DNA of 61,482 nt, counting the filler. It is 9 parts of 9 records of this genome, joined end to end, with 100 filler letters (N's around TTAATTAATTAA, not from the genome) between each part and the next. Parts side by side here need not be neighbours in the genome. Positions count along the whole stretch, not along the records: positions 55,784 to 61,482 come from SRR31147125_38921; 8 more parts are not named here. The stretch is one strand, 5' to 3'. This document shows positions 18,067 through 61,482 of the stretch, piece by piece. Numbering within the stretch: position 1 is the stretch's first letter; each line of letters opens with the position of its first letter. The notes beneath the pieces were generated by a model that saw only the letters and a program-made list of their open reading frames with translations, was not told the DNA's origin and made no database searches. The position numbers and the translations under genes are program-made.

Positions 18067-18166
18067 NNNNNNNNNNNNNNNNNNNNNNNNNNNNNNNNNN
18101 NNNNNNNNNNTTAATTAATTAANNNNNNNNNNNNNNNNNNNNNNNNNNNNNNNNNNNNNNNNNNNN
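18067..18166. other. Artificial contig spacer
   Basis: Ns around TAATTAATTAA. Confidence 0.98.
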
Positions 18167-28088: not shown

Positions 28089-28188
28089 NNNNNNNNNNNN
28101 NNNNNNNNNNNNNNNNNNNNNNNNNNNNNNNNTTAATTAATTAANNNNNNNNNNNNNNNNNNNNNNNNNNNNNNNNNNNNNNNNNNNN
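28089..28188. other. Artificial contig spacer
   Basis: Ns around TTAATTAATTAA. Confidence 0.98.
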
Positions 28189-31061
28189 AAAAAGTAAATC
28201 TTACTGGTGCCGTGGCTACAGTAAGTGGCGAAGTTCTTGAAGACCGCCCTATCACTAATGTAAATCAAGGTATTCAGGGTGTTATGCCGGGTGTCAATAT
28301 TAATTTCTCGCAAGGGAAAGTAGGAGAAAAAGGAAATATTAATATTAGAGGTGTTACTGGATTGAATTCAGGTGGCACAGGCGCTACTAATGGCTCGCCA
28401 CTCATTTTGGTTGACGGTGTAGTAATGGACATGAACGAAATCAATCCAAACGATATTGAAAGTATCTCCGTGTTAAAAGATGCTGCCTCAGCTGCAATTT
28501 ATGGTGCAAGGGCAAACAACGGGGTTATTCTCATCACTACCCATGGTGGAAAAAAAGGTGACATAAAAGTTCGTGTTTCATCCAGTATGAGTTTCTCGAA
28601 ACCTTCACGTATTCCAGACCAAATGACAGGTTACGAAAATGCTTTGGGTATACAGGAAGCTACCAGTACATCTATGCATAAAGGTGGTAATCCTCGTTTT
28701 TCGGAGGAAGAGTTACAATTAATTTATGAATATGATCAGGATCCAACTTTATCTCCGCTTATTGGTATGGGATATGGTGGAATGGAAGGCGCATATACCG
28801 GAAAAGGAAGGACAGGTAAATATTTGTTACGTGCAAACACTAATTGGGTTGATGAAACATTTGAGTTTATGCAGCCCAATTACACCAATAGTGTAAGCTT
28901 TAGTGGTGGTGTTGATAAAGTACGTTATTATGTATCGGCCGGTTCATACAACCAGCAGGGATACTTGCGTTACGGAAACGATAAATATAACCGTTACAAC
29001 TTTTCTTCGAAGCTGGAATTTGATATAAACAATTGGCTTACCCTTACTTCGCTTACTAAAGTTAATGCCATAAGGAGTGATATTCACGAGCAAGATGGTA
29101 GTGGCGGTATGTGGCACTCTATTTGGCGTATGCCGGCTTACACACCTATCTGGACTCCTGATGGAGATTACTTTGCTTACAGAGGAGAAACCAGTTCAAT
29201 CCCGTGGATGATTGACGGTGGACGTGACAAAACCCAGGAAGATAATATCTATCAAACCATTGGCCATAAAATAAAAATTGATGATACGAATATTAAAATA
29301 AATGGTGATGTTACTTATGGGCGTACTTCAAGTTTCAGAAAAAGGCATTTTAAATCAGTAGATATGATTGATTCCGGTAGTGGTAATATGCGAACATTCA
29401 ATCCTACCAATTCTGTGACCGAATCATTTGCATTTAATAATTATTGGGCTATTAACGAATATGCAGAATATGAAAATACCATTAACGAGCAACATTATCT
29501 GAAATTAATGGCCGGGATGAATATGGAAACCCAAAACAGTACTAGCCCTTCTGTAACAGGACGAGAACTGTTGAACAACGATATTCCATACCTTGGTCTT
29601 GCTGCCGGTACTATTACTGCCGGAGAAGGTTATTCCGATTGGGCTATATGGGGATTTGTTTCGCGTGTAAATTATATTTATAAAGACAAATATCTTTTTG
29701 AGTTTAATGGTCGTTACGACGGAACTTCACGCTTCCCAAGCCAAAACCGTTGGAAATTCTTTCCTTCGTTTTCTGCAGGATGGAGAGTTTCTGAAGAATC
29801 TTTTATGGACTGGAGTAATGAATTCCTCAACAACCTGAAGTTGCGTGCTTCGTATGGTTCATTGGGTAACCAAAGTACTGCAAGTGGAAGTTATCCGTAT
29901 ATTAGTACGTACTCAACCGGAACACAGTCAGGATATATATTTGATGATCCTCAACAACCGCCAAGAACAGTTAATCCGGGAGGTTATGTTTATTCTAATC
30001 TAAAATGGCAAACAACCGAAACAGTTGACTTTGGCTTTGATCTTACATTGTTAAATAAACTAAATGCCAACTTTGACTATTACGTAAGAAATTCTCGTGA
30101 TAACCTTGCTCCGAACAAAGGTATTCCAAATGTAATAGGCGCCAGCGCACCTTTGCAAAACAAAGGCGATATCCAAACTAAAGGTTGGGAAATTTCTCTG
30201 AGATGGGATGACAGAATCCAGGATTTCAAGTACGGAGTTGGGTTTGTATTGTCTGATTACCGATCAACAGTTACCAAGTATGACAACCCAACAGGTACCT
30301 TATCGACACTTTACGAAGGGCAAAAATTTGGCGAAATTTGGGGCTACAAAACCAATGGATTGATTCAAACTCAGGAACAAGCTGATAACAGTCCAAATAC
30401 CGACTACTTATACAGTAAATTTGGCAGACAGCCTGGTGATATTTTGTTTGTTGACCTTAATGATGATGATAAAATTGACAAGGGTGATTACACACTTGAG
30501 AATTCAGGCGATTGGACAGTAATTGGAAACAGCACTCCTCGTTATTCGTTTGGTTTAACTTTAAATGCCGAATGGAAAGGTTTCGATTTCAGTACCTTCT
30601 TCCAGGGAATTGGCAAACAGGATAGGTGGATGTCGTCTTTTATGCTTTGGGGATTTAGCGACAGCCAATGGCAAGGGTCTTCACAATATGTTGTAATGAA
30701 TGCATGGCGTGCTGAAGATATATTAAGTCCTGATGGTGAGGTAATATTACCCAAAAACACAACAGATGCTAAATTGCCGCGTAATGCAGCTTATGGTAAA
30801 CACTGGAACCAAAAACACCCCTCAGAATTTATGTTACAGGATGCTTCTTATATACGCTGGAAAAATTTAACTGTTGGTTATACATTGCCGAAAAAACTGA
30901 CCCAAAAAGCAGGTATTAGTAAATTAAGGATTTATGCAAGTGGTCAAAATTTATGGGAATGGACTAAAATGATTGAAGTCATTGATCCTGAAATGAGCGG
31001 CAGCGCTAAAGTTTACCCAATTTACCGTAATTACTCTGTTGGTGTAAATGTGAGTTTCTAA
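28189..31061 (+). CDS. SusC/RagA TonB-dependent receptor (5' truncated)
   Basis: KVNLTGAV, PLILVDG, DIESISVLKDAASAAIYGARA.NGVILITT, RYDGTSRF, LKLRASYG, C-terminal VNVSF. Confidence 0.95.
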
Positions 31062-31100
31062 AAACGGGACAATTTTGATTAACATTTAAAAGCTTAAGAG

Positions 31101-32786
31101 ATGAATAATATCAAATATATAGTAATAATTATCCTTGCAGTGCTTTCTGCAAGCTGTGAAGATTTTCTGGATTTATATCCGAAAAATACAATAAACGACG
31201 TAACATTTTGGCAAAAAACCTCGGATCTTGAATTATATTGTAATGCCTATTATGGTGCAATCCCGGGAAGTGGGATTGCTTCAACTGATAGGAATAGTGA
31301 TTTATACATACACAGTACAATAACAAACGAAGTGCTTTGTAAACGCACGATTCCGGCCACAGATAACATCTGGAGCTGGGGCAACATTCGGAAGTTTAAT
31401 ATTTTTCTTGCCAATTACACTAGCGCACAAGGTGATGCCGATGAAATTAATGTTTATGTAGGCGAGATTAAATTTTTCAGGGCTCTTGATTACTGGAATA
31501 AAGTCAAGAAATTTGGCAACGTACCTTGGTTCTCGAAAGAATTAGACCCGGAGAATGAAGAGGATATTTTCAAAAGCCGCGACTCCAGAAAAATGGTAAT
31601 GGACTCTGTTATGGCTGATTTGGATGCTGCTATTCAGTATTTGCCATTGAAAGGCAAAGAAAAAACCGGCCGAATTCACCGTGAATATGCTTTGGCCTGG
31701 AAAGCCCGAATTGCTCTTTATGAAGGTACATGGCGTAAATACCACCAAGGAACTATTTTTGGTGTTGAAGGCAATAATGGAGATGCGTTGCTTCAACAAG
31801 CTGCTGATGCGGCCAAAGAGATAATTGATGGTGATAAATTTCAAATTGTAACAGGAGATACAAGTAAAACTTATAATGAATTATTTATTACTAATGATTT
31901 ACGTAACCATCCCGAAATGATTTTTATCAGAAGATATATATATCCTGAAAAAAAACATAGCACCTCATATAATTTATTTCAAGGTAATGGCAATGGTTTG
32001 AGTAAAAATGCAGTTGACATGTATCTGTGTACAGATGGTAAACCAATCTCAATCAGCGATGATTATTTAGGAGATGATGTATTAGAGGATGAGCTGTCTT
32101 ACAGAGATCCACGCTTATTACAGACTATTGCTTATCCAAATACAGATATTGCCACCGGGGATGTTTCTCCGGCTCTTCCAGGCATGGGAAATCCATATAC
32201 AACTTCGGGTTATTTTATTAGAAAGTGGTATCTGGCTGAGCAAAATGGCTATAATATGCAGGAAACCGATATCCCTGTATGCCGTTATGCAGAAGTATTG
32301 TTGATTTATGCAGAAGCTAAGGCGGAGTTGGGGGAAATTACCCAGCAGGATTTGGATGTGACAATTAATATTTTACGAGACCGTGTTAACATGCCTCATC
32401 TAACAATCAATCCTCCTGCAGATCCGGAAAATATGTTCGCAAAAATTGGGATGGACTTAAATCCGATTATTGTAGAAGTTCGCCGTGAACGTGCAGTGGA
32501 ATTGATGCTGGAAGGAAAACGTTGGGACGATATCCTTCGTTGGAGGGCAGGTAAACTCATCGACCAAGATTACAAAGGTATTAAATGGGCGCCAGGTCGT
32601 TATCCTGATTTCACTTTAACTGACCAATTCCTGATTACCGAAGATGGGTATATTCAGCTTCCTTCTTATGCTTTCTCAAATAGAAATAAATGGAATGAAG
32701 ATAGAGATTATTTATATCCACTTCCGTCCGATGAACTTTCAAAATACCCTGAAGGTATTATAACTCAAAACCCGGGATGGGAATAA
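31101..32786 (+). CDS. SusD/RagB nutrient-binding lipoprotein
   Basis: Lipobox SASC, GEIKFFRA, RYAEVLLIYAEA, ERAVELMLEGKRWDDILRW, QNPGW. Confidence 0.95.
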   Translation: MNNIKYIVIIILAVLSASCEDFLDLYPKNTINDVTFWQKTSDLELYCNAYYGAIPGSGIASTDRNSDLYIHSTITNEVLCKRTIPATDNIWSWGNIRKFNIFLANYTSAQGDADEINVYVGEIKFFRALDYWNKVKKFGNVPWFSKELDPENEEDIFKSRDSRKMVMDSVMADLDAAIQYLPLKGKEKTGRIHREYALAWKARIALYEGTWRKYHQGTIFGVEGNNGDALLQQAADAAKEIIDGDKFQIVTGDTSKTYNELFITNDLRNHPEMIFIRRYIYPEKKHSTSYNLFQGNGNGLSKNAVDMYLCTDGKPISISDDYLGDDVLEDELSYRDPRLLQTIAYPNTDIATGDVSPALPGMGNPYTTSGYFIRKWYLAEQNGYNMQETDIPVCRYAEVLLIYAEAKAELGEITQQDLDVTINILRDRVNMPHLTINPPADPENMFAKIGMDLNPIIVEVRRERAVELMLEGKRWDDILRWRAGKLIDQDYKGIKWAPGRYPDFTLTDQFLITEDGYIQLPSYAFSNRNKWNEDRDYLYPLPSDELSKYPEGIITQNPGWE

Positions 32787-33241: not shown

Positions 33242-33341
33242 NNNNNNNNNNNNNNNNNNNNNNNNNNNNNNNNNNNNNNNNNNNNTTAATTAATTAANNN
33301 NNNNNNNNNNNNNNNNNNNNNNNNNNNNNNNNNNNNNNNNN
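33242..33341. other. Artificial contig spacer
   Basis: Ns around TTAATTAATTAA. Confidence 0.98.
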
Positions 33342-43443: not shown

Positions 43444-43543
43444 NNNNNNNNNNNNNNNNNNNNNNNNNNNNNNNNNNNNNNNNNNNNTTAATTAATTAAN
43501 NNNNNNNNNNNNNNNNNNNNNNNNNNNNNNNNNNNNNNNNNNN
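43444..43543. other. Artificial contig spacer
   Basis: Ns around TTAATTAATTAA. Confidence 0.98.
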
Positions 43544-43997: not shown

Positions 43998-44428
43998 AAA
44001 TCTGTGGCTGATATTTATAGCGTTTTCTGTTATAGCTGGAAAAATGTGCGGTATGAATGGAAGTAATTGCCGGAAATAATGGAGGGTAGGCTGGCTGGAG
44101 ATGTGTTATTGAAGTACCCGGAAGATTGGTGCTTATCTGCGCTTATTGCAATGATCGAGTAATTTCTGTTACTGAATGTGTTTGCAACTATACATGCCTA
44201 TCATCTTTCCGAAATAAGTTGAGCAGAAAGATTGAAATAACTTTATGTAATGTATGTTAATTGTCGATTGATGTTGTAGGGTGTCGTCTACACTTACAGG
44301 AAGGACTGTCATTCTGCATCTAGCTGGCTGTCTCTGTGACAGAGTTGCAGCAATGCTTTCTGAACGTGGACTAGCAGGCGATAACTACATATGTATTTAA
44401 TAAAGAATCTTCTCCGGAGAATGAATTG

Positions 44429-47400
44429 ATGAAGTTTATAAAAATCAGGTATTATCTTATTTCAGCTATGCTGCTATGTTTGCTATATTGTAGTAAGCAG
44501 GTTCATGCTGCAAGTTATCTGCTGGATGTTGCCTCTACTGAGACCAATGGAGGTACTAATTCTGGAGCTCCAGCTATACTTGATTCTGATCAATTGACAA
44601 TAAATACCGATGGCTCTATAACTACTACGGGTGCTGCATATGGAATATGTTTGGGAAGTAGCAACACAGTTCTTGTTGATAATAGCTCAGCTGCCGAGGA
44701 GGTTACTTCTGTTGCAGCAGCAATAAAAGTAAATGATAGTTCTACTGGAAATACAATAACGATCAATACCACAGCGTATGTACAATCAACTGGAGCAGAG
44801 GGTCTTGTTCTGGGGGCGAGTGCAACCAAGAATGATATAACTATTAATGGAACGCTTCATAATAGTGTGGCAGGGAAAGCCGCAATGGCTATGGATACAA
44901 CTGCTTATGCAAATACTGTCACAATTAGCGGTACGGTTGAGAATGCCTATAATGGTAGCTCTGCAAGCTATGGTGCTGAGATAAATGGCGACTCTGTTAT
45001 GGTTATGAAATCAGGTAGTACGGTCTCGACCGCTGGAGTAAACAGTATTACCCTGAATACAGCGGCGACAGCTAGTGGTTCTGCTGCGCTGCATATTGGC
45101 GGGACTGTGACAGCCGCAAGTGAGGATGCGGTTGCTGTTAATTTTACCAGTTCTGAAACTTTTGCTACAAATACCGCTATCTACTTTTTCGATACAGCAA
45201 GTACTACTGGTAAAATAACCTCTACTAGTTCTAATAGTAATTCTGCATGTCTGATATTCGGTTATGCTACAGATGTTAATGGTGAGGCTGACCTTACAAC
45301 TGCTGATGCGGCTTTTGCTATGACAGTGGGAGGAAATATTGAAAGTAGCGGTACTGATAGTTTTGATGGGTTCTTTGCTGCCGGTGAGACGACTCTGAGT
45401 GGTTCCAAGTATCAGTTTAAAAGAGTATTTGTAGGGGCAGATAGTTTTGATGGGACTATAGTTTCTGATGGTTACAATGCGGATACAACTCAGAAGACTG
45501 CAACCCTCGGGGCGCTGGCTAATACTGGTGCAATACTCAACGTCAATGGAGAGTTTGTTGCTGAGGAACTGGTTACAGGTGAGGATAGTTCTATTAATTT
45601 TACCGGTAGCGGTACAAAGACAATAACAAATGTGGATCTTACTGGTGGAACAACTGCTGATCCGGCGACAGCTGACAGCAGCCTCAAAGTTGAGGGTACT
45701 TCGGATATGAATATTACTACACTTACCTTCAAGGGTAAGGGTAATACTGCTGTAGGTAATTATCTTGATAATGAGATGGACAGAGGAGCGGCAAAAGTAA
45801 ATATTGGGACACTCAAGGTTGATGCTACAACTGATAGTGATCAAGTTGAGGCGAGCCTGCTCTCTACTAGTGGTAAAGAATCTGCATTTGCCGTTGGGGA
45901 TCTAAGTATCGCTGGTACTGTAGCTGATAAAGGTCGGCTCAATCTTAGCTCGGATGATGGCGGTGGGGTTGACACTACTTTGATCCTTGATATAGAGGAT
46001 CTTACGCTATCTGGTGATGGAGTCCTGACAGACAGGGCGGCTGAGCTTGATTTTGATACTGCAAACGGGAGTCTGATCAGTGCTGATGTTGATACTGTAA
46101 CAGTGACTGCTGGTAAGACAGGGTTTATAAGTCTTGATACCGCTGGAGCAATGCTTGATATAGAGACAAAGGCAGATATTAATGCAGGAAGTAGTCTGGG
46201 GATCGAAAGTACGGATGACAGTAAGGCTATTATTGCTCAGGCAAATATCATGGCTGGCGGGCTGCTGGAGTTTTCAGGTACATCTACTGGTACTGGTGTT
46301 ATAACTGCAAATGAAGTTAATTTTACTGGTGCTGGCGGGAAGTTAGACAACAGTATTGCAGATGATGATGCCGTTGCTATTGGTACACTTTCTGTAACAG
46401 GTGGTACGCTGGGGACAGGCGGTACGCTTACAAAATCTGCCGGAGGTAACGCTACTACGACAGTCGGGACAGTAAACGTGACTGCTGCTGCTTCGAGTGA
46501 TGGAAGCCTGACACTGAATAATGAGACAGGGGCTGCTAGTGCGCATATTTTCAAGATAACTGCTGTCAATCTCTCGGGTTCATCTGCTACTGATGGCAGC
46601 GGTAGAGCTGAGTTTATTGTAGACAGCGGGGCTGGTAATACTACTGATGTCAATGTGGGTGATCTGGTGATTGCTGATAATAAAAATGGTTATATTGAAG
46701 TATCACAGACTGGAGCTGCAACTACTCTGGATTTTGAAGGAGCAGGGGATGATACGACTATAGGCAGTGGAGCAACTCTGCAGATAAAGATCAATGGCGG
46801 TACTGTCGATCTCAATGATATATCGCTTGCGGGTAAACTGGATCTTAGTGATACTACAGTAATCCCTGATTTTGAGAAGCTTACAGTTACTGGAACAGAG
46901 GCGGAGGTAGAGGTTAAGGCTGGGCTTACTTTTGTCAATCCAGCTCCTACTACCGGTACGATCTTTAATTCTGGATCCAGGCTTACTACTTCTGGAGCAG
47001 GTGATTTCAATCTTGGTAATATTGATGCATCTGCTGGTGAGGCTGTACTCAAAATGACCGGTAGTGGTTCGGTTACTATAAAAGGCGGTAGTGCTGATAA
47101 TCTGACTATTCAGTCTACAGCAACAGGGGCAGATATTATAACCAGTGGAGTGCTTGCAGCCAAGAATCTTGATGTTGATGCCAATACAGGGATAAGTTCG
47201 GCTGGAGGTTCGGTCGCAGTTGGCAGTACAGATACTGGTACTGATACAGATATTGGCAATGGGGTAACTCTTACCTTGAGTGGAGCTAATACTTTTGCTC
47301 TCAATGATATTGCTGGCGGGGCAAATTCTGGCATGACCGTCAGTAACGGTACTGGGGCGGTAACTGTAAATTCTGTTGAGCTTGGCAGCGGGCTTTTTAC

Positions 47401-49687
47401 TTTTACACATAGTGATAATGATAATGTCTCTCTTGGAAAAGTAACAGCTGGGACGGCTGGGAATAATTTGACTATTGCAGGTGCTGGAACAGGGGCTGTA
47501 AGTGTGGATACTCTCAATGTCAGTGAAAATTTTACTCTGACTGCTGACAAAGCGGCAACTGTAGATAATGCAGTGGTCGCTGAGGATAAAATTCTCTCTA
47601 TTGCCAATACTGCAAACAATCTTACAGTGACTACTATGGCATTAGGCGGTACGCTTACTAATTACAGTTCTGCTTTGCAGAGTATTGCTACTCTAAATAC
47701 TTCTGGTGATAAAGCTAAGATTGACGGTACTGCAGCTGTGGCAGTAACCAACAGGGTCAACCTTGATAATAATCTGGAAGTTGCTGGAGCCGGAGTAAAG
47801 ACTTTTACCGGAGGGGTGGATATCAAAGGTGGTAAAACTTTGTCTGTATATACCTCAGCGTTGCATAGTCTGGGTGATATCGTTATGACAGAAGGCAAGC
47901 TGGCGATTCTTGCTGCTGCTGCTGAGAATACATTGACTGGGACAAGCCTGACTCTTGGTTCAGGTAGTACGGGTACTATTGATGTCGCATCAGGTAAGAC
48001 CTATAGTACTGGCAGTACTACTTTCAGTAATAATGCTGTGCTCAATGTCAGTGGGGATGGTACTGTAAACCTGGGTGCTGTTACTGGCAATACCAATCAC
48101 TTTACTGTAAATATCGGTAGAGGGTCAACTGCTGAGTTTGGGGCGACTGATCTGACGACTGCTGCAGGGAGGAAGATTAATATTGATCTTGGGTTGAGCG
48201 AGACTGCTGCTGCAGGGACTTATGGTAAGCTTAAAGGTGCTGCCAATATTACGACTAGCGGAGGGGCTTCTGGGATTGTTAATGAAGTATATGGGGTAAA
48301 TGGAGTGGCAGGTCTTACTTATAGTAGTGTACTTGATGGTGCATTTGCCGGTGGTGGTGTAAATGATGGTGATGTACTCAATACTGATGATAGATTCAGG
48401 ATTTATACCCTTGGGAATTCCTGTCAGGATATTACTGTAACAACAAACTCTGATAGAATTAGTGAGATTATTCTCGGTAGTGGTAGCTCTACTACTGTAT
48501 CCGCGGCAGCAGAAAATCTTATCGAAAATCAGAAGAATCTAAACGCCGAAGGACAGCAGTATGTTGATGGGTTGACCTCTCTGGATGATAGTACTTTTGT
48601 ACGGGCAATGGATGAAACAATCGGTGAGAATACAACCCTTCATGTTAATCAGGCAACTGTCAAATCTATCCAGCAGGGTAGTGCTGCTCTGAATCAGCAG
48701 CTCGGGTCTTTTCGTACTGGTTTTATTGCTGTAGCAATGGCTTCAGCTTACTCTTCCGGCGGTATGACAGCTGCTCTTGATGACATGGCTGATCCGGATA
48801 CTCTAGCTGATGCTTATGGTTCTGGATTTACTGCTGCTGCCGAGGTGGAGTATGGGAAGCAGCAGGTCTGGGTAAATGGCTTCGGTGGTTTTGGTGAGCA
48901 GGCATCGACTTCCAATCAGATAGGTTATGACTTTTACAACGCTGGGATGCTTATTGGTTTTGATTATCTTCTGGCTAGAGAGCTGCGTGTCGGGGCTATC
49001 TTGAGTTATAGTTATAATAAGGCGACACGCTACTGGAATTATGGACACTCAGTAAATAATTCTCTGCGCTTTGGAGTATATGGTTCTTATAACTGGAATA
49101 ACTTTTTTGTTGATCTTTCGCCATCAATGGGATTTCACTTTATTGATTCAAAACGTAATGTATATAATGGGTCTGTTGCTACAGGTGACCGAGTGGGTAT
49201 AGACTTTGATGCAACAGGTACTATCGGCTACACCTTTAACTTTATCAATGACTATCAGGTGACTCCGACTCTTGCGCTGGGGTATTCGAGATTCTATGAT
49301 CCTGAATTTACAGAGACTGGAGCAGGCGCAGCAAATATTGCGTATAGTGATTTTACTACTAATTCTCTTGTTCAGGATTTTGGTGTAAAAGGAGGTAAGC
49401 TCTGGGTGTGCTCTGATAGACTATCCTTCCTGCCGGAAGCTTGGGTTGGTTGGGAGTATGAGTATCTTGATACCGGCGGTAATCGTAATACAACTACTTC
49501 TGCTGCTCTTGGTTCTCAGAATTATGCAACAACTATGAATGGTATGGCGAAAAATAGAGCATACTGGGGAACTGGAGTTACTGCACTTGTCAATGACAAT
49601 ATCTCTGTGTATGGGCGTTATGACCATAAAATATGGGATAAAGGTTTCAATGTAGGGTTTAGCTCAGGTGTCAAGGTTAAGTTCTGA
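44429..49687 (+). CDS. Large autotransporter (type Va) with G/T/A-rich passenger
   Basis: Signal peptide ending VHA, about 1400-aa low-complexity beta-helix-like passenger, C-terminal barrel (WVNGFGG, IGFDY, FTETGAG, terminal VKVKF). Confidence 0.9.
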   Translation: MKFIKIRYYLISAMLLCLLYCSKQVHAASYLLDVASTETNGGTNSGAPAILDSDQLTINTDGSITTTGAAYGICLGSSNTVLVDNSSAAEEVTSVAAAIKVNDSSTGNTITINTTAYVQSTGAEGLVLGASATKNDITINGTLHNSVAGKAAMAMDTTAYANTVTISGTVENAYNGSSASYGAEINGDSVMVMKSGSTVSTAGVNSITLNTAATASGSAALHIGGTVTAASEDAVAVNFTSSETFATNTAIYFFDTASTTGKITSTSSNSNSACLIFGYATDVNGEADLTTADAAFAMTVGGNIESSGTDSFDGFFAAGETTLSGSKYQFKRVFVGADSFDGTIVSDGYNADTTQKTATLGALANTGAILNVNGEFVAEELVTGEDSSINFTGSGTKTITNVDLTGGTTADPATADSSLKVEGTSDMNITTLTFKGKGNTAVGNYLDNEMDRGAAKVNIGTLKVDATTDSDQVEASLLSTSGKESAFAVGDLSIAGTVADKGRLNLSSDDGGGVDTTLILDIEDLTLSGDGVLTDRAAELDFDTANGSLISADVDTVTVTAGKTGFISLDTAGAMLDIETKADINAGSSLGIESTDDSKAIIAQANIMAGGLLEFSGTSTGTGVITANEVNFTGAGGKLDNSIADDDAVAIGTLSVTGGTLGTGGTLTKSAGGNATTTVGTVNVTAAASSDGSLTLNNETGAASAHIFKITAVNLSGSSATDGSGRAEFIVDSGAGNTTDVNVGDLVIADNKNGYIEVSQTGAATTLDFEGAGDDTTIGSGATLQIKINGGTVDLNDISLAGKLDLSDTTVIPDFEKLTVTGTEAEVEVKAGLTFVNPAPTTGTIFNSGSRLTTSGAGDFNLGNIDASAGEAVLKMTGSGSVTIKGGSADNLTIQSTATGADIITSGVLAAKNLDVDANTGISSAGGSVAVGSTDTGTDTDIGNGVTLTLSGANTFALNDIAGGANSGMTVSNGTGAVTVNSVELGSGLFTFTHSDNDNVSLGKVTAGTAGNNLTIAGAGTGAVSVDTLNVSENFTLTADKAATVDNAVVAEDKILSIANTANNLTVTTMALGGTLTNYSSALQSIATLNTSGDKAKIDGTAAVAVTNRVNLDNNLEVAGAGVKTFTGGVDIKGGKTLSVYTSALHSLGDIVMTEGKLAILAAAAENTLTGTSLTLGSGSTGTIDVASGKTYSTGSTTFSNNAVLNVSGDGTVNLGAVTGNTNHFTVNIGRGSTAEFGATDLTTAAGRKINIDLGLSETAAAGTYGKLKGAANITTSGGASGIVNEVYGVNGVAGLTYSSVLDGAFAGGGVNDGDVLNTDDRFRIYTLGNSCQDITVTTNSDRISEIILGSGSSTTVSAAAENLIENQKNLNAEGQQYVDGLTSLDDSTFVRAMDETIGENTTLHVNQATVKSIQQGSAALNQQLGSFRTGFIAVAMASAYSSGGMTAALDDMADPDTLADAYGSGFTAAAEVEYGKQQVWVNGFGGFGEQASTSNQIGYDFYNAGMLIGFDYLLARELRVGAILSYSYNKATRYWNYGHSVNNSLRFGVYGSYNWNNFFVDLSPSMGFHFIDSKRNVYNGSVATGDRVGIDFDATGTIGYTFNFINDYQVTPTLALGYSRFYDPEFTETGAGAANIAYSDFTTNSLVQDFGVKGGKLWVCSDRLSFLPEAWVGWEYEYLDTGGNRNTTTSAALGSQNYATTMNGMAKNRAYWGTGVTALVNDNISVYGRYDHKIWDKGFNVGFSSGVKVKF

Positions 49688-50357: not shown

Positions 50358-50457
50358 NNNNNNNNNNNNNNNNNNNNNNNNNNNNNNNNNNNNNNNNNNN
50401 NTTAATTAATTAANNNNNNNNNNNNNNNNNNNNNNNNNNNNNNNNNNNNNNNNNNNN
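50358..50457. other. Artificial contig spacer
   Basis: Ns around TTAATTAATTAA. Confidence 0.98.
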
Positions 50458-55258: not shown

Positions 55259-55683
55259 CTAAATGGACAGGGAATGTCCACCATCCACCATGACAATCTC
55301 ACCGGTCATGTATGCAGACGCTTTAGTGGATAACAAAACTATGGGGCCGAATAAATCAATCACATTGGCCATGCGACCAAGCGGTACTATGCCGACACGA
55401 TCCAGTTCCTTCTGATTCAAGTCTCTTTCGGTATCCCCGGTAATGGCGTTTTCCCGGATATCAATGAATCCGGGTGCAATGGCATTGACTCGAACACCAC
55501 TGCCGGCCCATTCACAGGCCAGTGATTTCGTAAGCATCAGTACTCCCGATTTGGAAACGCAATAACCTGACTTGGGAGAACCTTTAACGCAAAAATACGA
55601 TGCTGTGGAAGCAAAATTGACGATGCAGCCTGTGCCACGGCCGGTCATCCATTCGCCGAAATACCGGCATGTCAGGAACGTGG
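55259..55683 (-). CDS. Short-chain dehydrogenase/reductase, 5' truncated
   Basis: IVNFAS, YCVSK, VRVNAIAPG, YMTGE..MVDGG. Confidence 0.88.
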
Positions 55684-55783: not shown

Positions 55784-56698
55784 CCCTCGGCGCAGGGATG
55801 TGCCAGTGCCCAAGAGGAAACAGACGAGTTTGAAGAGTTCTCTGATGATGAATTTTCGGAGTTTGCAGAAGATGACAATAGCGAAGTTGAAAAATCAGAT
55901 TCAATATGGACCAACAGGAATTTTACACTTTCGCTTTTAGTTCTTTTTTTAACGCTTGTGGCCGGAATTCTGGTTCGTTTTAAAACCACCAGAAAACTGA
56001 AAACATTTATGTTGCTCGGAACAATGGTATACCTTGGTTTTATTAATGGTGCCTGCCCGTGTATGATTTCCAGTTTCCAGAATACCGTAATGTATGTAAT
56101 GGGAATTGATGTTGAACCGGTTCTTATGCTGTGGTTCCTGGGATTAATTCCGCTAACATATTTCTTCGGAAAAGTTTGGTGTGGCTGGGTTTGCCATTTA
56201 GGAGCCTTACAAGAATTTATTTTCCGCCCGGGAGTTATAAAGGTTTTGCAAAGCCGCAAATCGCAGGTAATTTTAAAATGGATTCGCATTGTAACTCTTA
56301 TCGTTCTTGTCATTCAAATTGTAACAACACGCACCAATATTTTTATTCATTACGATCCGTTTAAAGTTGCATATAACCTGTTTTCGGCAAATACAACCGG
56401 CTATGTACTTTTAGTTATTATGCTGGTTTCGTCAATTCTTATTTACCGGCCGTTTTGCCGTACACTTTGCCCGGTAGGTTTGATTCTGGGTTGGGTTTCG
56501 CATATTCCGGGGGCCGCGAAAATAAATAAAACAGAAAGTTGTATCGATTGTAAAAGCTGTAGCAATGCATGCAATTACAATGCAATGACTTACGAAAATA
56601 AAAAGAGTAAAATAGATAACGAAGACTGTATTTTATGTGGCGACTGTTTGGATAGTTGTAAACTTTCTTCGATAGAAATTAAAGGAATAGCCAAATGA
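55784..56698 (+). CDS. NapH/MauN/NosR-C-like membrane ferredoxin-type protein (5' truncated)
   Basis: Frame open from the contig edge. Acidic tract, several TM helices, GACPC, FGKVWCGWVCH, RPFCRTLCP and two CxxCxxCxxxC motifs. Confidence 0.85.
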   Translation, partial: PSAQGCASAQEETDEFEEFSDDEFSEFAEDDNSEVEKSDSIWTNRNFTLSLLVLFLTLVAGILVRFKTTRKLKTFMLLGTMVYLGFINGACPCMISSFQNTVMYVMGIDVEPVLMLWFLGLIPLTYFFGKVWCGWVCHLGALQEFIFRPGVIKVLQSRKSQVILKWIRIVTLIVLVIQIVTTRTNIFIHYDPFKVAYNLFSANTTGYVLLVIMLVSSILIYRPFCRTLCPVGLILGWVSHIPGAAKINKTESCIDCKSCSNACNYNAMTYENKKSKIDNEDCILCGDCLDSCKLSSIEIKGIAK

Positions 56699-58050
56699 AG
56701 AAAATTATATTTCTAGTATTTTTTGTCGGAACATTTTTAACAGGAGCTGCACAATGGGAATGCCCAAGTAAACTGGCAGCTCATCTCGATCCGGTATTTG
56801 ACAGCCCGCTTTTAATTGCAGGCGAAACTCAGTTTACTACCGGAATTCTGGACGGCAATTCGATTAGTACCGCCATGGCGTTTGTGGGATTGGATTACAG
56901 CACCCAAAATCACTCGTTTTATTTTGAAGGAGGAATAAAAAACTGGTGGAAATACGATTTTGATGAAGAGATTCTGTTCGACAATCACCGCCTGGGATTA
57001 CGCGAATTGTTTTATCAATACAACGGGAGTTTGAGCAGTGTTACTGTTGGGTTACAAACCTCAACTTTCGACGACCATTATTTATTAAATGAACGCGTGG
57101 CCGGTGCCAATTTTAAACTCGATTTGGGTAATTTAAAATTTAATGCATACGGAGGTAGTGTAACAAAAGATTTTGCGAGGAACGGAATTTTCTGTACCAC
57201 CGGATTTATTTACGACCTGCAAACCGCGCAAAATTCAATTTCTTTGGGTAACAGTTTAGGCGATAAAAACCTGGCCGGTTTCACATTTACCTTATTTCCG
57301 GGAAAAGCTAAAAAGACCAAAACAAAGCCATCAGAGTCGGACGAGGATGAATTTGAGGTTTTCGAAGAAGATGAGTTTGCGGAAGTGGATGACAATGAAT
57401 TTGAAGCAACGGATGAGTTTGAAAGCTCTGATGAAGAGTTTGCAGATTTTGAGATGAATTCGCAAGAAAAAAAATTGAAAAATACGCTAGTTTTCGGAAT
57501 CGAAAAAATTGGTATTGCAGCCTACTCCGAGTTTGGCGATTGGATTCAAAATGCCTTCTATCATACGGGGCTTTTTGCTTCGGTAAAATTACCCGGAGAT
57601 ATATATTTTAAACCGGAAGCTCTTTTGCAAATTGAAGAATTGAATAAAGGAATTATTTACCTGGCCGAGTTGGAAAGGTCGTTTAAGTTAAAAGGTGGCA
57701 ATCGGCTGTTTGTTTCAGCAGCTTATTACGGATTTTCTGAAATTGATGATGATGCCATGGTTTTGAACTCGTACAGTAATATTTTGGCGGGAGAAGTGCT
57801 TAGGCTCGATGCTGCAAACATGCCATTCTATTTGTTGGGTGCAAAGTTTAATATTCCATCGGCAAAATTTCATATAAAACTACAAAGTGCCGGGCAACTT
57901 AATTCGGGCGATTTAAACGAGTGGGACATTGAAATAGGGAAAAAGTTTATCGACCGCCTGCATGTGAATGCCAAGGCAGGAATAATTAGTGGTGGCGAAC
58001 TGGAAGAAAACGCTTTATTGGGGCGTTTGGAAGCAAGGTATTATTTTTAA
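56695..58050 (+). CDS. Hypothetical exported protein, predicted outer-membrane beta-barrel with acidic insert
   Basis: Sec signal (MKKII...GAA|Q), many amphipathic beta-strand patterns, C-terminal GRLEARYYF; ATG overlaps the upstream stop. Confidence 0.65.
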   Translation: MKKIIFLVFFVGTFLTGAAQWECPSKLAAHLDPVFDSPLLIAGETQFTTGILDGNSISTAMAFVGLDYSTQNHSFYFEGGIKNWWKYDFDEEILFDNHRLGLRELFYQYNGSLSSVTVGLQTSTFDDHYLLNERVAGANFKLDLGNLKFNAYGGSVTKDFARNGIFCTTGFIYDLQTAQNSISLGNSLGDKNLAGFTFTLFPGKAKKTKTKPSESDEDEFEVFEEDEFAEVDDNEFEATDEFESSDEEFADFEMNSQEKKLKNTLVFGIEKIGIAAYSEFGDWIQNAFYHTGLFASVKLPGDIYFKPEALLQIEELNKGIIYLAELERSFKLKGGNRLFVSAAYYGFSEIDDDAMVLNSYSNILAGEVLRLDAANMPFYLLGAKFNIPSAKFHIKLQSAGQLNSGDLNEWDIEIGKKFIDRLHVNAKAGIISGGELEENALLGRLEARYYF

Positions 58051-58062
58051 AGAGGGCGCATT

Positions 58063-59079
58063 ATGACGAAAGAGAAAAAGAATCAGGAAGAAAATACAAG
58101 ACGTAAATTTATTGGCGGCGGATTAACATTTGCAGCAGGAAGTTTATTATTATCTCCGCTTATTCATTCTTGTTCCGAGAGTTTTTATGATACACTAACC
58201 ATTGACGGAGCTCGTTGTATTGGCTGTGGCGATTGTGACGATGTTTGTAATTACAGCGCAATCGAAATGAATGGCGTTTCGGAATACTGGATAAATGTAG
58301 GAGATTGTTCTAAATGTAGTTGGTGTGTAGATGTTTGCGAAGATGATGCCATTAAAATGCCGGAGTTGAGTTACAATATTACTGCAAGTAAATGTACCGG
58401 TTGTAACGAGTGTCTTCCGTCGTGTGAATATGGTGCTTTAAAAATTGCGTCAAACGTATATTCTATAGAATCGGGATGCGTAGGTTGTGGCGACTGTATA
58501 ACAGCATGCGAAGATGAAGCAATCTCTTATGTTGTGAGTGAATATTCTGTAAGTGGCGGGAAATGCCATGCTTGTATCTCCCGATGTTCCGGGGCTTGTA
58601 AATACGATGCTATTTCATTAAAAAACGGGCATGCTTATATCGATACATCTAAATGTACAAAGTGTGGCGAGTGTTTAAGCGCCTGTCCGTATAGTGCTAT
58701 TAAAAAAGCTTATGTAGAAATCGATCAGGAAAAGTGTACCAACTGTGGCAAATGTTACGATGCATGTACTTACGACGAAATTGAAAAATCCGGCGATTCT
58801 GATATCGAAGAGTCATTCATCGAACGACTTTCGTGTACCAATTGTGGCGAGTGTATTGATGAGTGTCCGGAAGATGCTATTTATATGGTAAAATCGGGCG
58901 ATTTTGAGCCTGAAATAGTAATGGAAGACTGTACTGTTTGTGGTAAATGTTTCGAAGTCTGTTCTGTTCAGCAGGCTGTCGATCGAACTGTTGCCACGGC
59001 ATCAATCACTCAGGATAACTGTATGAAATGTGATAAGTGTTTTGATGTTTGTAATTACGACGCGGTACAGATGGGGTAA
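58063..59079 (+). CDS. Polyferredoxin (ten 4-Cys Fe-S motifs) with twin-arginine/lipoprotein-like signal
   Basis: NTRRKFI, hydrophobic stretch, IHSC; then nine CxxCxxCxxxC and one CxxCxxxCxxxC. Confidence 0.88.
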   Translation: MTKEKKNQEENTRRKFIGGGLTFAAGSLLLSPLIHSCSESFYDTLTIDGARCIGCGDCDDVCNYSAIEMNGVSEYWINVGDCSKCSWCVDVCEDDAIKMPELSYNITASKCTGCNECLPSCEYGALKIASNVYSIESGCVGCGDCITACEDEAISYVVSEYSVSGGKCHACISRCSGACKYDAISLKNGHAYIDTSKCTKCGECLSACPYSAIKKAYVEIDQEKCTNCGKCYDACTYDEIEKSGDSDIEESFIERLSCTNCGECIDECPEDAIYMVKSGDFEPEIVMEDCTVCGKCFEVCSVQQAVDRTVATASITQDNCMKCDKCFDVCNYDAVQMG

Positions 59080-59102
59080 AAACGTTAGTATTTATAACAC
59101 AG

Positions 59103-59150
59103 AGAACCGTTCTTTCTTACATATATTGAAGAGAGAACGGTTCTTTTTTT
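59103..59150 (+). terminator. Intrinsic terminator between the polyferredoxin operon and hydrogenase operon
   Basis: AGAACCGTTCT...AGAACGGTTCT followed by a T-run. Confidence 0.8.
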
Positions 59151-59158
59151 CGTCAGTT

Positions 59159-59665
59159 TTATGCTGATTTTATATCATCAGCCTCAGCATTTCTATATTC
59201 TGCAATAATGTTTTTTACTTCTGAAGGAGAAACACGTCCGAAAACTTTTTCGCCCACAGTAACCACCGGAGCAAGGCCGCAAGCTCCCACACAACGCAGG
59301 CAGTTTATCGAAAATTTTCCATCTTCGGTAGATTCTCCAACATCAACACCCAATTGGCGTTTAAATTCGCTAAGAACCTGTTCTGCACCACGAACATAGC
59401 ATGCAGTTCCCATACAAATTGAAATAGGATGTTCGCCTTGTGGAATCATAGTAAAGAAGCTGTAGAATGTTACGACTCCGTAAACTTTTGCTACCGAAGA
59501 ATTTAATTCTTTTGCAATTACTTCCTGCACCTCGGCCGGTAAATAACCTAGTTTTCCCTGAACTTTATGAAGTACATTTATTAATTCACTCTCTTTATTT
59601 TCAAACTCAGCACAAATGTCTTTTATGAGCTGAATTACATTTTCTGCTAATTTTATTTTTGGCAT
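59159..59665 (-). CDS. [2Fe-2S] NuoE-like hydrogenase subunit (HydC/HndA type)
   Basis: VYGVVTFYSFF, CMGTACYVRG, CVGACGLAP. Confidence 0.92.
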   Translation of the reverse strand: MPKIKLAENVIQLIKDICAEFENKESELINVLHKVQGKLGYLPAEVQEVIAKELNSSVAKVYGVVTFYSFFTMIPQGEHPISICMGTACYVRGAEQVLSEFKRQLGVDVGESTEDGKFSINCLRCVGACGLAPVVTVGEKVFGRVSPSEVKNIIAEYRNAEADDIKSA

Positions 59666-59717
59666 TTTCAGTACTTTTTAAATTTAAGCATTAAATAATT
59701 CTCGCATTCCTGCACAA

Positions 59718-61469
59718 TTAAGTTCTGTCAAAGTACTCGGTATGCAATAAATGATGCGCTTTTTCACTCATAGGTTCTCCAAGGAATTTTTCGTATAATT
59801 CAATGATGTAAGGATTTTCGTGCGACTTACGAATCGTTTTATTTTTATCTTCCCGGTAAATAGCCATTTGTCGTTTTTTCAAAACTTCAGCATCTCCATG
59901 GTGATAAGGCTGGCCTCCACCGCCAATGCATCCTCCCGGACAACTCATTATTTCAATGGCGTGGAACTCGCTCTTTCCTGCCCGAATATCTTCCAACAAT
60001 TTACGCGCATTTCCTAAACCGTGGGCAATTCCTATTCGAATAGGCAAACCATCGAAATCAATGGTAGCTTCACGAATTCCTTCCATACCGCGTAATTCTT
60101 CGAAATCTACTTTCGGAAGTTCTTTTTTAGTATGCACCTCATAGGCTGTACGAACTGCTGCTTCTATAACACCTCCGGTAGTTCCGAAAATAACAGCAGC
60201 ACCGGTCGATTCTCCAAGTGGATTGTCGAACTCTTCGTTTGGCAGGGCATTAAAATCAATATTCGATAGTTTTATTAATGATGCCAATTCGCGGGTAGTA
60301 AGTGCATAATCAACATCTGGATTACCGTTTGTTTTAAACTCATCGCGGCCACATTCGTATTTTTTTGCTACGCACGGCATAATAGAAACCACAACCAAAT
60401 CTTCACGTTTAACTTCCATTTGCTCGGCAAAATATGTTTTGGCAATGGCTCCAAACATTTGTTGTGGCGAACGTGCTGTTGAAGGAATTTCCTTCATGTC
60501 GGGGAATTGGTGTTCAAAGAATTTCACCCAGGCCGGACAGCATGAAGTTAGAATAGGAAGTTTAACATCCTTGTCGCCGGCCAAATGTTTTCCTAATCGG
60601 TTAAGTAACTCTGTCCCTTCCTCCATAATAGTGAGGTCGGCAGCAAAATCGGTGTCGAAAACATGGTGGAAACCAAGTCGACGCAAAGCTGCAACTAGTT
60701 TGCCTGTTACCAATGTTCCGGCTTCCATTCCAAATTCTTCGCCCAAAGCAGCACGTACTGCCGGAGCAGTTTGAACGATAACTGTTTTTGAAGGATCTGA
60801 AAGTGCACGGATTACTTTACCTGTTTCGTCAACTTCGGTTAATGCTCCTGTTGGGCACACTGCCACACATTGTCCACAGTATGTACAAACAGAATGGTCG
60901 AGGTTCATTTCAAAAGCCGGTGAAACAACCGAATCGAAACCACGGTTAATAGCAGAAAGTACACCAACGGTTTGAACCTCGTTACACATCATTTCGCAAC
61001 GGCGACACATAATACATTTGTCTACATCGCGGGTAATTGCAGGTGATGTATCGGCACGATATGTTGATTGTTCTCCTTTATAATGAATTTCGCGGATTCC
61101 AAGATTGTGAGCCAGATCCTGCAAGTCGCAATTGCCCGATTTTGCACAGATTAAGCAGTCAAACGGATGGTCGGAAAGAATTAATTCCATTACCGTTCTT
61201 CTGGCATTAATAACACGCATTGAGTGTGTATTAATCTCCATCCCTTCGCCAACATCGGTACAACAAGCCGGAGCCAGATTGCGTCTTCCGTTTACTTCAA
61301 CCACACAAATTCGACATCCTCCGGGTTTATTCTCAATGTTTAAATCGTCCAGTTTCATGTGGCAAAGGGTCGGGATATCAATTCCAATTCCCGATGCCGC
61401 TTCTAAAATTGTGGTTCCTTTTTTTACCACAACCGGTTTATTATCAATGGTAAGATTTACTGTATCCAT
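59718..61469 (-). CDS. hydA: [FeFe]-hydrogenase group A catalytic subunit (HydA/HndD type)
   Basis: N-terminal [2Fe-2S], HxxxCxxCxxxxxC, 2x[4Fe-4S]; H-cluster motifs TSCCPAW, MPCVAKKYE, EIMSCPGGCIGGGGQP. Confidence 0.95.
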   Translation of the reverse strand: MDTVNLTIDNKPVVVKKGTTILEAASGIGIDIPTLCHMKLDDLNIENKPGGCRICVVEVNGRRNLAPACCTDVGEGMEINTHSMRVINARRTVMELILSDHPFDCLICAKSGNCDLQDLAHNLGIREIHYKGEQSTYRADTSPAITRDVDKCIMCRRCEMMCNEVQTVGVLSAINRGFDSVVSPAFEMNLDHSVCTYCGQCVAVCPTGALTEVDETGKVIRALSDPSKTVIVQTAPAVRAALGEEFGMEAGTLVTGKLVAALRRLGFHHVFDTDFAADLTIMEEGTELLNRLGKHLAGDKDVKLPILTSCCPAWVKFFEHQFPDMKEIPSTARSPQQMFGAIAKTYFAEQMEVKREDLVVVSIMPCVAKKYECGRDEFKTNGNPDVDYALTTRELASLIKLSNIDFNALPNEEFDNPLGESTGAAVIFGTTGGVIEAAVRTAYEVHTKKELPKVDFEELRGMEGIREATIDFDGLPIRIGIAHGLGNARKLLEDIRAGKSEFHAIEIMSCPGGCIGGGGQPYHHGDAEVLKKRQMAIYREDKNKTIRKSHENPYIIELYEKFLGEPMSEKAHHLLHTEYFDRT

Positions 61470-61482
61470 AATTTTCAAGTTT

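Follow-up and report, generated by a model that had tools for sequence, protein, structure and literature searches.

The window, a stretch of 61,482 nt in which nine records of one genome are joined end to end, encodes a polyferredoxin lipoprotein with a Tat-type signal and ten cysteine motifs, an observation confirmed in the translated sequence. Its gene comes last in a tight, operon-like arrangement behind the genes for a NapH-like membrane protein and an outer-membrane beta-barrel. As to function, we regard as evenly balanced the proposal that this protein is a NapG-like, lipid-anchored periplasmic electron wire of 8-12 clusters that links the NapH-like protein to the barrel. To our knowledge, all characterised electron routes over the periplasm and outer membrane are built on multiheme cytochromes, and the exported Fe-S carriers that we know of (NapG, NrfC and DmsB-type) hold some four clusters each and supply an enzyme in the periplasm. 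The family described here is set apart by its 8-12 clusters, a conserved export signal and predicted lipid anchor, a location that is always adjacent to the barrel gene and, usually, a NapH-like donor. The features discussed below are:

55784..56698, + strand, NapH/MauN/NosR-like polytopic membrane Fe-S protein (5' end cut by the contig end; 304 aa visible)
56695..58050, + strand, 18-strand outer-membrane beta-barrel (451 aa; predicted by AlphaFold2 and Foldseek)
57313..57483, + strand, disordered acidic insert of the barrel with DEF-type repeats (aa 207-263, pLDDT <50)
58063..59079, + strand, polyferredoxin lipoprotein with Tat-type signal (338 aa; mature part of 301 aa after Cys37, pI 4.17)
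58063..58173, + strand, signal region (n-region T-R-R-K-F-I, 16-aa h-region, lipobox L-I-H-S-C)
58216..59052, + strand, ten Cys motifs (aa 52-330, period of 27-33 aa)
58564..58599, + strand, variant fifth motif CxxCxxxCxxxC (aa 168-179)
59159-61478, - strand, [FeFe] hydrogenase, HydA/HydC (convergent, 79 nt downstream of the polyferredoxin gene)

Cluster motifs and N-terminal signal of the polyferredoxin

The translated open reading frame contains 41 cysteines, namely C37 and 40 within ten motifs that start at aa 52, 82, 111, 139, 168, 198, 225, 258, 290 and 320, so the 40 mature cysteines in ten regular motifs, one with variant spacing, are present as originally predicted. The spacing is CxxCxxCxxxC in nine of the ten motifs and CxxCxxxCxxxC in the fifth, and Cys-Pro is found at the motif end in just two. 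Pfam gave Fer4 at E 4.1e-38 with Fer4-type families as the sole matches, and the ten-motif pattern is therefore far beyond chance. The motifs are predicted to hold ten [4Fe-4S] clusters, arranged as five ferredoxin-like double units, for which some 40 Fe per protein would be expected. In an alignment of 27 homologues 39 of the 40 motif cysteines are invariant, and the fortieth (C330) is conserved in at least 90%. The fifth motif keeps its position and all four of its cysteines (C168, C171, C175 and C179) in that alignment; its spacing is atypical in every member, and differs among subgroups. Family versions with 8, 10 and 12 motifs exist, which argues against a fixed ruler length. The AlphaFold2 model of the polyferredoxin was poor (mean pLDDT 53.7, pTM 0.30), and wire length and fold search are beyond a model of such quality.

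The family is rare: of 1.84 billion clusters at 50% identity, it accounts for about 25. Fused or longer forms were absent at E<=1e-20, which we count as weak evidence. ESM Atlas returned generic Fer4 clusters only, below 0.9. The NCBIfam models VhuB (63.3 vs. a cut-off of 600) and FwdF (68.7 vs. 375) did not reach equivalog level, and no NapG/MauM model is among the NCBIfam matches listed (25 of 79). Two homologues are labelled 'energy-converting hydrogenase B subunit K' by one source. Papers on exported lipoprotein polyferredoxins of more than four clusters, or on an Fe-S porin conduit, did not turn up in a full-text literature search.

The twin-arginine codons lie at 58099-58104 and the Cys37 codon at 58171-58173. 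Residues 12-17 (T-R-R-K-F-I, or T-R-R-K-F-I-G when extended to residue 18) fit the Tat consensus (S/T)-R-R-x-F-L-K and are followed by an h-region of 16 residues with a mean Kyte-Doolittle value of 1.24 and by L-I-H-S-C37. Tat signals are expected to have low h-region hydropathy; across the family the h-regions are 15-19 aa long with values of 0.24-1.28 (one row was mis-parsed). The lipobox I-H-S-C fits [LVI][ASTVI][GAS]-C at positions -3 and -1, with an atypical His at -2, and the -1 residue is S, G or A throughout the family. All 27 of 27 homologues (32-66% identity) share R13, R14 and C37, F16 is conserved in at least 90%, and RR.[FILVQ] together with a lipobox was found in 20/20 top representatives with intact N-termini in an exhaustive search. 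Loss of the RRxF motif or the lipobox Cys among homologues, named in the original prediction as grounds for abandoning it, was thus not observed. A true start downstream of the signal, the other such ground, is ruled out as well, since ATG 58063 is the sole in-frame ATG, GTG or TTG between the upstream stop (12 nt before) and codon 69, which falls beyond the first cluster motif.

The Tat assignment itself held up in part. The RR motif and the weak h-region are conserved family-wide, but the curated models do not recognise the N-terminus: in tests run without a known Tat signal as positive control, Pfam PF10518 matched 0/27 polyferredoxins at E<=1 and 0/5 isolated N-termini at E<=10, and NCBIfam TIGR01409 left the window polyferredoxin unmatched and scored one relative only (12 bits vs. 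a cut-off of 16.7). TatC (PF00902) scored above cut-off in 10/10 related module-carrying genomes tested, and as far as we know Fe-S proteins exit the cytoplasm via Tat alone. We infer from the conserved motifs that the polyferredoxin is exported by this pathway, lipidated and loaded with [4Fe-4S] clusters, probably ten in number.

Conserved gene order and the upstream proteins

The NapH-like gene overlaps the barrel gene by 4 nt, and a gap of 12 nt separates the latter from the polyferredoxin gene. A promoter and terminator scan of 55784-59700 gave results at or under shuffle expectation. The synteny is conserved: the barrel gene adjoins the polyferredoxin gene in 16/16 loci examined (in the Aminicenantes locus the barrel gene was assigned by an hhalign probability of 95.4%), and a NapH-like gene does so in 14/16. 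It is missing at L005, where a DUF4405 protein is encoded instead, and at L006, whose genome contains no close NapH-like orthologue. In 4/4 positive-control genomes the polyferredoxin is single-copy and beside the barrel. Relatives also encode a small protein at the operon head, with 3 Cys and 1 His conserved in 8/8 copies and with unnamed Bacteroidota clusters as its only ESM Atlas matches. The polyferredoxin is dispensable for the module: in six genomes the barrel, the NapH-like protein and the small protein are all encoded, but a polyferredoxin is found nowhere (0/6 at E<=1e-15). None of the four module proteins matched a named family beyond generic Fe-S domains. With an NapH-like gene and an 18-strand barrel gene directly upstream, a role of the polyferredoxin in the envelope is strengthened; the original suggestion of an exported protein gains from this linkage, although it is not backed by the curated Tat models.

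The reading frame of the NapH-like protein is open from the contig start, and the full-length orthologue in locus L081 has 464 aa. The protein contains G-A-C-P-C, CxxxCH and CxxxCP motifs, a C-terminal 2x[4Fe-4S] domain and an acidic DEF-repeat stretch that is predicted to be periplasmic by hydropathy and charge. Pfam detected Fer4_5 (E 5.9e-16) and dicluster families. All 13 of 13 NapH-like proteins from loci with a polyferredoxin keep a pair of cysteines (as C-P-C, but as C-x-V-C in two) where a helix is predicted to end on the periplasmic side, and both cysteines are lost in four of six NapH-like proteins from polyferredoxin-less loci. This covariation is confounded by lineage, because five of the polyferredoxin-less loci look closely related.

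The barrel protein starts with a signal peptide, shows W-E-C-P-S as a conserved sequence at the N-terminus and ends in Y-Y-F. Its AlphaFold2 model has 18 strands (pLDDT 79.0, pTM 0.75), and the best Foldseek matches were OccK/OccD, AlgE and MOMP at E of about 1e-10 to 1e-9 (full range E 3.3e-10 to 1e-7, TM 0.43-0.61, identity 8-13%). No Pfam or NCBIfam family matched the barrel protein, and its likeness to OccD/OccK and AlgE is for that reason one of fold and not of family membership. Among 40 family members C23 is conserved in 40, C167 in 38 and the terminal F in 35. The acidic insert lies between strands 8 and 9 and, judged by strand parity in the model, is probably a periplasmic turn. As defined by alignment (aa 201-267) it contains 24 D+E vs. 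8 K+R and four [DE][DE]F motifs; in 20/40 family members two or more motifs of this type occur in the insert. A complex prediction for the barrel (21-451) and the polyferredoxin (38-338) scored 0.00, which speaks neither for nor against binding.

Proposed electron path and its closest precedents

In the proposed path the polyferredoxin would receive its Fe-S clusters inside the cytoplasm, be exported folded via the Tat pathway and be anchored by an N-terminal lipid on Cys37, as an enlarged, lipid-tethered periplasmic counterpart of NapG/NosG. Its electrons would come from the NapH-like protein, which is encoded two genes upstream and is expected to expose its 2x[4Fe-4S] domain to the cytoplasm. 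About ten closely spaced clusters could then relay them towards the 18-strand barrel encoded immediately upstream. At the usual distance of about 10-12 A from one cluster to the next, ten in a straight line would extend over about 100-110 A at the very most, or some half of the width of an E. coli-like periplasm. Candidate acceptors are the small 3Cys-1His protein and a small substrate or metal ion that lies within the barrel or past it. Which way the electrons flow, the physical contacts of the polyferredoxin with the barrel and with the NapH-like protein, and the identity of the acceptor are likewise inferred. If correct, the proposed wire would widen the known chemistry of envelope electron transfer and point to an unrecognised redox interface for sediment and gut-associated Bacteroidota. 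The barrel gene is carried by cultured relatives (among the source names are Draconibacterium, Saccharicrinis, Carboxylicivirga and Mangrovibacterium), which puts the idea within direct reach of experiment.

The closest precedents are NapG-NapH, NosG-NosH and MauM-MauN, in which a polytopic Fe-S protein of the NapH family is likewise combined with an exported poly-[4Fe-4S] partner bearing a twin-arginine motif. The present system differs from NapG-NapH in that an outer-membrane barrel gene sits between the NapH-like and polyferredoxin genes, and nap, nos and mau catalytic genes are absent nearby. The NapH-like protein differs from NapH by an extra periplasmic acidic region and by its score against NCBIfam NapH/MauN TIGR02163 (76.5 bits, under the cut-off of 213). 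NapG is soluble with about four clusters (PMC5449189 in part, otherwise general background), whereas the polyferredoxin has ten motifs and a lipobox. Both separate NapH-NapG pairs and fusions of the two, in which the Fe-S domain is exported by Tat, have been described, among them PFD of delta proteobacterium MLMS-1, a polytopic NapH-NapG fusion polyferredoxin and dual Sec-Tat substrate (PMC5449189). In PFD a NapH-like module likewise feeds a Tat-exported polyferredoxin domain outside the cytoplasm (PMC5449189). PFD is, however, one fused polypeptide with transmembrane anchors, whereas here the genes are separate and the polyferredoxin has its own signal and predicted lipid anchor.

Alternative readings of the module

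A different reading, doubtful in our view, is metal handling, in which the small secreted 3Cys-1His protein, the NapH/CcoG-like protein and the acidic-lined barrel would reduce a metal cation at the envelope, for instance Cu(II) or Fe(III), or traffic it there, and the polyferredoxin would assist this reduction by storing or relaying electrons in the periplasm. CcoG, a Fer4_5 protein, is reportedly a cupric reductase. Occurrence of the core module without the polyferredoxin is consistent with this reading, as are the acidic DEF repeats that the NapH-like protein and the barrel each have in regions predicted to be periplasmic, the invariant acidic residues of the barrel (E44, E78, E104, E133 and D372) and the Cys and His residues of the small protein. 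Three loci also encode, alongside the module, an ArsP_1 permease and a small-protein paralogue, and the permease shows a weak likeness to the SO_0444 Cu/Zn efflux family (52.6 bits); that score, however, is far under the cut-off of 300, and no component matched a metal-binding family. Ten clusters would far exceed the needs of a one-electron metal reductase, and the metal-handling reading overlaps with the proposed wire, as it needs a periplasmic wire as well. If true, it would still make the module a system not described before, and one whose electrons are supplied in an unusual way.

A more ambitious extension of the wire starts from the location of the polyferredoxin gene beside genes for an inner-membrane electron-transfer protein and a barrel, on which ground the three proteins may form a heme-free trans-envelope electron route. 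Such a 'porin-ferredoxin' conduit of three genes, to which relatives add the small 3Cys-1His protein, would have a NapH-like entry, an outer-membrane-tethered chain of 8-12 [4Fe-4S] clusters and an exit at or through the barrel to an external or surface acceptor; we consider it unlikely and offer it tentatively. The gene logic resembles that of MtrCAB, PioAB and Cyc2, with a ten-centre redox protein, an outer-membrane barrel and an inner-membrane entry module, and MtrC is a lipoprotein too. The likeness is one of genes alone: porin-cytochrome conduits are multiheme with a 26-strand porin, whereas here Fe-S clusters and an 18-strand barrel are predicted, and heme-binding CxxCH motifs number zero in each of the NapH-like, barrel and polyferredoxin proteins. 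The MtrB sheath has 26 strands, and an 18-strand barrel, being much smaller, is unlikely to enclose a ferredoxin domain. If it exists, the conduit would be an Fe-S extracellular electron-transfer route for anaerobic Bacteroidota and some Acidobacteriota.

We consider it improbable that the polyferredoxin is an ordinary NapG/NrfC/DmsB-type subunit for a periplasmic reductase encoded elsewhere, with the barrel importing the substrate and making no contact with it. Tat-exported Fe-S subunits with NapH-like partners are well known (PMC5449189), and the barrel resembles substrate-specific 18-strand channels (OccK/OccD, AlgE and chitoporin). However, the loci read show no conserved gene for a catalytic subunit beside the module. 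The polyferredoxin is encoded only beside the barrel (all 16 loci, and as a single copy in the four genomes above), and it belongs to a family with 8-12 clusters and a predicted lipid anchor, in contrast to soluble four-cluster subunits.

The methanogen polyferredoxins MvhB, VhuB, FwdF and EhbK are likewise made of tandem CxxCxxCxxxC motifs that follow one another closely, with hardly any linker between them, but they are signal-less and reside within cytoplasmic enzyme complexes, whereas the polyferredoxin here has a conserved N-terminal signal. The best solved match is MvhB (9sw6_G, E 1.4e-20), followed by FwdF (E 1.3e-9); both, cited in the original prediction as large cytoplasmic methanogen proteins, proved to be the closest solved relatives. 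A cytoplasmic MvhB-like polyferredoxin that serves the adjoining [FeFe] hydrogenase, its N-terminal region having no export function, would agree with these matches, with the HydA/HydC genes 79 nt downstream and with the silent Tat models, but it is highly improbable given a convergent hydrogenase, the RR and lipobox Cys invariant over 27 homologues and 20 representatives, and the far lower scores of signal-less polyferredoxins in the exhaustive search (from rank 23, E 8.8e-42 downwards). Linkage of the polyferredoxin to the hydrogenase was rejected on a comparison of loci: among the 160 searched, the hydrogenase lies beside the module only in the close relative L081, where HydA is 93% identical, and the other polyferredoxin loci that were read have unrelated genes downstream.

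Candidate export signal and cluster motifs of the polyferredoxin

The last piece of the window (55784-61482) holds the polyferredoxin and the following genes.

Genes and sites in the last piece of the window
55784-56698, +, NapH/MauN/NosR-like membrane protein, 3' part of the gene (Fer4_5 and dicluster domain, Pfam)
56100-56115, G-A-C-P-C of the NapH-like protein
56695-58050, +, 451-aa barrel protein with signal peptide, no Pfam/NCBIfam family
58063-59079, +, polyferredoxin ORF, 338 aa
59159-59665, -, HydC (NuoE-like 2Fe-2S), convergent to the polyferredoxin
59718-61478, -, [FeFe] hydrogenase HydA, 586 aa, convergent to the polyferredoxin

The polyferredoxin starts with M-T-K-E-K-K-N-Q-E-E-N-T-R-R-K-F-I-G, followed by a 16-residue h-region and L-I-H-S-C37. 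It contains 41 Cys: C37 and 40 others arranged in ten motifs that start at residues 52, 82, 111, 139, 168, 198, 225, 258, 290, and 320 (period 27-33 aa). Nine motifs follow the pattern CxxCxxCxxxC; the fifth differs, with CxxCxxxCxxxC. The original prediction (an ORF with T-R-R-K-F-I, an I-H-S-C lipobox and 40 Cys in ten motifs in the mature part, one of them variant) was borne out in every detail. The true start does not lie downstream of the signal, an outcome that would have spoken against it: past the upstream stop, no start codon in this frame other than ATG 58063 occurs before codon 69, so a downstream start would cost the protein its first, invariant motif. Pfam matches were to Fer4-type families only (Fer4 E 4.1e-38). 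In the homologue alignment 39/40 cluster Cys are invariant and C330 is conserved in at least 90%. Motif number varies in the family (8 in 13/27 members, 10 in 12/27, 12 in 2/27), and the mature proteins are mostly acidic, with a pI of 4.17 for the window member. The predicted structure of the polyferredoxin was unreliable.

R13, R14, and C37 are invariant across the alignment, and at least 90% of the sequences have F16. The h-regions of the family span 15-19 aa (mean hydropathy 0.24-1.28), and the residue preceding the lipobox Cys is S, G or A in every member. In the window's protein the -2 residue is His, which is unusual, and +2 is Ser; the E. coli lipoprotein sorting rule, not validated for Bacteroidota, would send +2 Ser to the outer membrane. 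TatC was found in 10/10 related genomes tested. The curated Tat model PF10518 matched 0/27 family members and 0/5 isolated N-termini, and TIGR01409 picked up a single relative, at 12 bits vs a cut-off of 16.7. We read these results as a candidate Tat signal that is recognized by motif and not by HMM, the HMM comparison having been made without a known Tat signal as positive control.

A word-indexed search gave 26 full-length homologues (32-66% identity). When 1.84 billion representatives were searched exhaustively with HMMER, 43 proteins reached E<=1e-30. The best 20 with intact N-termini all carry RR and lipobox, so the concern that homologues might lack them did not materialize. Ranks 21-22 are N-terminally truncated, and from rank 23 onward (E 8.8e-42) the matches are methanogen-type polyferredoxins without signal. 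Since signal-bearing proteins rank above signal-less ones, the RR and lipobox signal marks out a family that is small and rare, with about 25 clusters at 50% identity.

Gene order and its conservation

The NapH-like, barrel and polyferredoxin genes are closely packed on the + strand. The barrel gene overlaps the NapH-like gene by 4 nt (ATGA), and the polyferredoxin starts 12 nt past the barrel gene's TAA stop in the same frame (58048-58065), which suggests translational coupling. The NapH-like protein scored 76.5 bits against TIGR02163 (cut-off 213). For the 451-aa protein, AlphaFold2 with a 40-row alignment gave an 18-stranded beta-barrel (pLDDT 79.0, pTM 0.75). Foldseek neighbours of the model are OccK/OccD, AlgE, and MOMP channels (E about 1e-10, TM 0.43-0.61, about 10% identity). 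C23 is conserved in 40/40 homologues, C167 in 38/40 and the C-terminal Phe in 35/40.

The 112-kb metagenome contig L081, whose polyferredoxin is 68% identical, has exactly the gene order of the window and provides the missing 5' part: a 127-aa secreted protein and the full 464-aa NapH-like gene, followed by barrel, polyferredoxin, and convergent HydC/HydA/HydB hydrogenase genes. The order small protein, NapH-like, barrel, polyferredoxin was also found in loci titled Prolixibacteraceae, Saccharicrinis, Saprospiraceae, and Bacteroidota. Among 16 polyferredoxin loci, window included, the barrel gene adjoins in 16/16 (the Aminicenantes case by hhalign, 95.4% probability) and the NapH-like gene in 14/16. 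One exception, L006, has no close NapH-like orthologue in its genome. The other is an Aminicenantes contig, which extends the polyferredoxin-barrel pair to another phylum and shows it with another inner-membrane partner:
L005, 1653-4214, 255-aa 8-motif polyferredoxin between a DUF4405 membrane protein (in place of the NapH-like protein) and a distant barrel homologue

Of 201 genomes sampled from the order, 17 contain the barrel. The polyferredoxin adjoins it in nine; six have small protein, NapH-like protein, barrel, and then an unrelated gene; one has the barrel alone, and one contig ends too early to tell. At E<=1e-15 the polyferredoxin was found anywhere in 0/6 of the genomes with the shorter module, and four positive-control genomes each gave exactly one, beside the barrel. 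We concluded that the polyferredoxin always accompanies the barrel and that the barrel module also occurs in its absence.

In NapH-like proteins from polyferredoxin-bearing loci, 13/13 keep two Cys in G-[AG]-C-P-C (C-x-V-C in two) at a helix's predicted periplasmic end. In the six polyferredoxin-less loci both Cys are lost in four, one is kept in one and both in one; the four also have CxxxC-Y for CxxxC-H. The paired Cys and this His track polyferredoxin presence, probably confounded by shared ancestry: the four look closely related and may represent one evolutionary event, making this a lead and not a test. C-P-C is a possible hand-over site to the polyferredoxin.

Electron transfer and alternative roles

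Functionally, the closest kin of the system is NapGH/NosGH. PMC5449189 describes NapH as having four helices and [4Fe-4S] clusters on the cytoplasmic side, NapG as its Tat-dependent periplasmic partner with four clusters, and a natural NapH-NapG fusion with a Tat-exported Fe-S domain. The simplest interpretation is an outward extension of such a NapG/NapH-type pair. Unlike NapG, the putative periplasmic partner has 8, 10 or 12 motifs and a putative lipid anchor, and is genetically tied to an outer-membrane barrel; electrons would pass from the NapH-like protein through the cluster chain toward the barrel. By hydropathy and the positive-inside rule, the acidic region before the NapH-like core is predicted to be periplasmic and the C-terminal 2x[4Fe-4S] domain cytoplasmic. 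The nearest solved proteins by sequence, MvhB (E 1.4e-20) and FwdF, carry no signals, unlike the polyferredoxin, and their equivalog cut-offs were missed by a wide margin. Porin-cytochrome conduits have similar gene logic, but the NapH-like protein, barrel and polyferredoxin contain 0 CxxCH motifs.

Judged by cluster spacing, a straight chain of ten would span no more than about 100-110 Å, short of the whole periplasm in a cell like that of E. coli, and the 8/10/12 variation argues against a strict ruler role. MtrB, which sheaths MtrA, has 26 strands; an 18-strand barrel is unlikely to sheath a ferredoxin domain in that fashion. We regard the polyferredoxin as a putative exported Fe-S electron carrier, a kind already known; that it belongs to a categorically new heme-free trans-envelope conduit is unlikely. 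The full-text literature searched, with few subscription journals in it, gave no account of such a family.

A rather unlikely view, which overlaps with the NapG/NapH-type reading, is that the conserved core deals with a metal, for whose reduction the polyferredoxin would give electrons. The module in relatives is headed by a secreted protein of ~125 aa without family, and the window's contig is cut before that position.

Copies of the small secreted protein
L081, 6846-7229
L002, 6867-7247
L004, 6557-6940
L001, 7196-7570
L003, 1662-2051
L006, 7453-7836
L172, 33-422
L180, 103-471

It keeps A-C-[ED] directly past the signal, possibly a lipobox, as well as [TSV]-H-R-x-C and R-x-C-[DS]-x-[ED]-G-G. 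Its three Cys and one His, kept in 8/8 copies, favour metal handling. So does a paralogue without most of those residues in three loci, which adjoins an ArsP_1 permease that has weak similarity to a Cu/Zn efflux family (52.6 bits vs a cut-off of 300). Acidic repeats on both the NapH-like protein and the barrel point the same way. Residues 207-263 of the barrel model form a disordered acidic insert between strands 8 and 9, predicted from the parity of the strands to be a periplasmic turn, and [DE][DE]F motifs recur there and just before the NapH-like core; 20/40 barrel homologues have at least two in the insert. They may bind cations, or they may be a short linear motif that the two proteins share.

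[DE][DE]F repeats in predicted periplasmic disordered parts
Window, 55784-55900 and 57313-57483
L081, 7230-8624
L172-L177

That the polyferredoxin is an ordinary electron carrier for a reductase encoded elsewhere is doubtful, given its exclusive pairing with the barrel; no conserved catalytic gene was found beside the module in the loci examined. L081 adds a NuoF-like HydB, an arrangement typical of a bifurcating-type HydABC. This close relative is the only one of 160 loci searched to have the hydrogenase beside the module, and we treated the adjacency as incidental; a cytoplasmic MvhB-like partnership with it is highly improbable, being contradicted by this and by the conserved signal.

Other pieces of the window

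The window consists of separate contigs joined by eight N44-TTAATTAATTAA-N44 linkers, so genes on either side of a linker are not real neighbours.

Linkers
5631-5730, 11039-11138, 18067-18166, 28089-28188, 33242-33341, 43444-43543, 50358-50457, 55684-55783

Genes are cut at the joins, e.g., an SDR fragment (55259-55681) and the NapH-like gene at 55784. The SusC/SusD-type genes and the relatives found point to a Bacteroidota source.

28191-32786, +, SusC-like (TonB-dependent receptor plug) and SusD-like gene pair, supporting a Bacteroidota origin of that piece
44426-49687, +, 1753-aa ORF, autotransporter beta-domain at the C-terminus (Pfam E 3.2e-40), passenger part without other family
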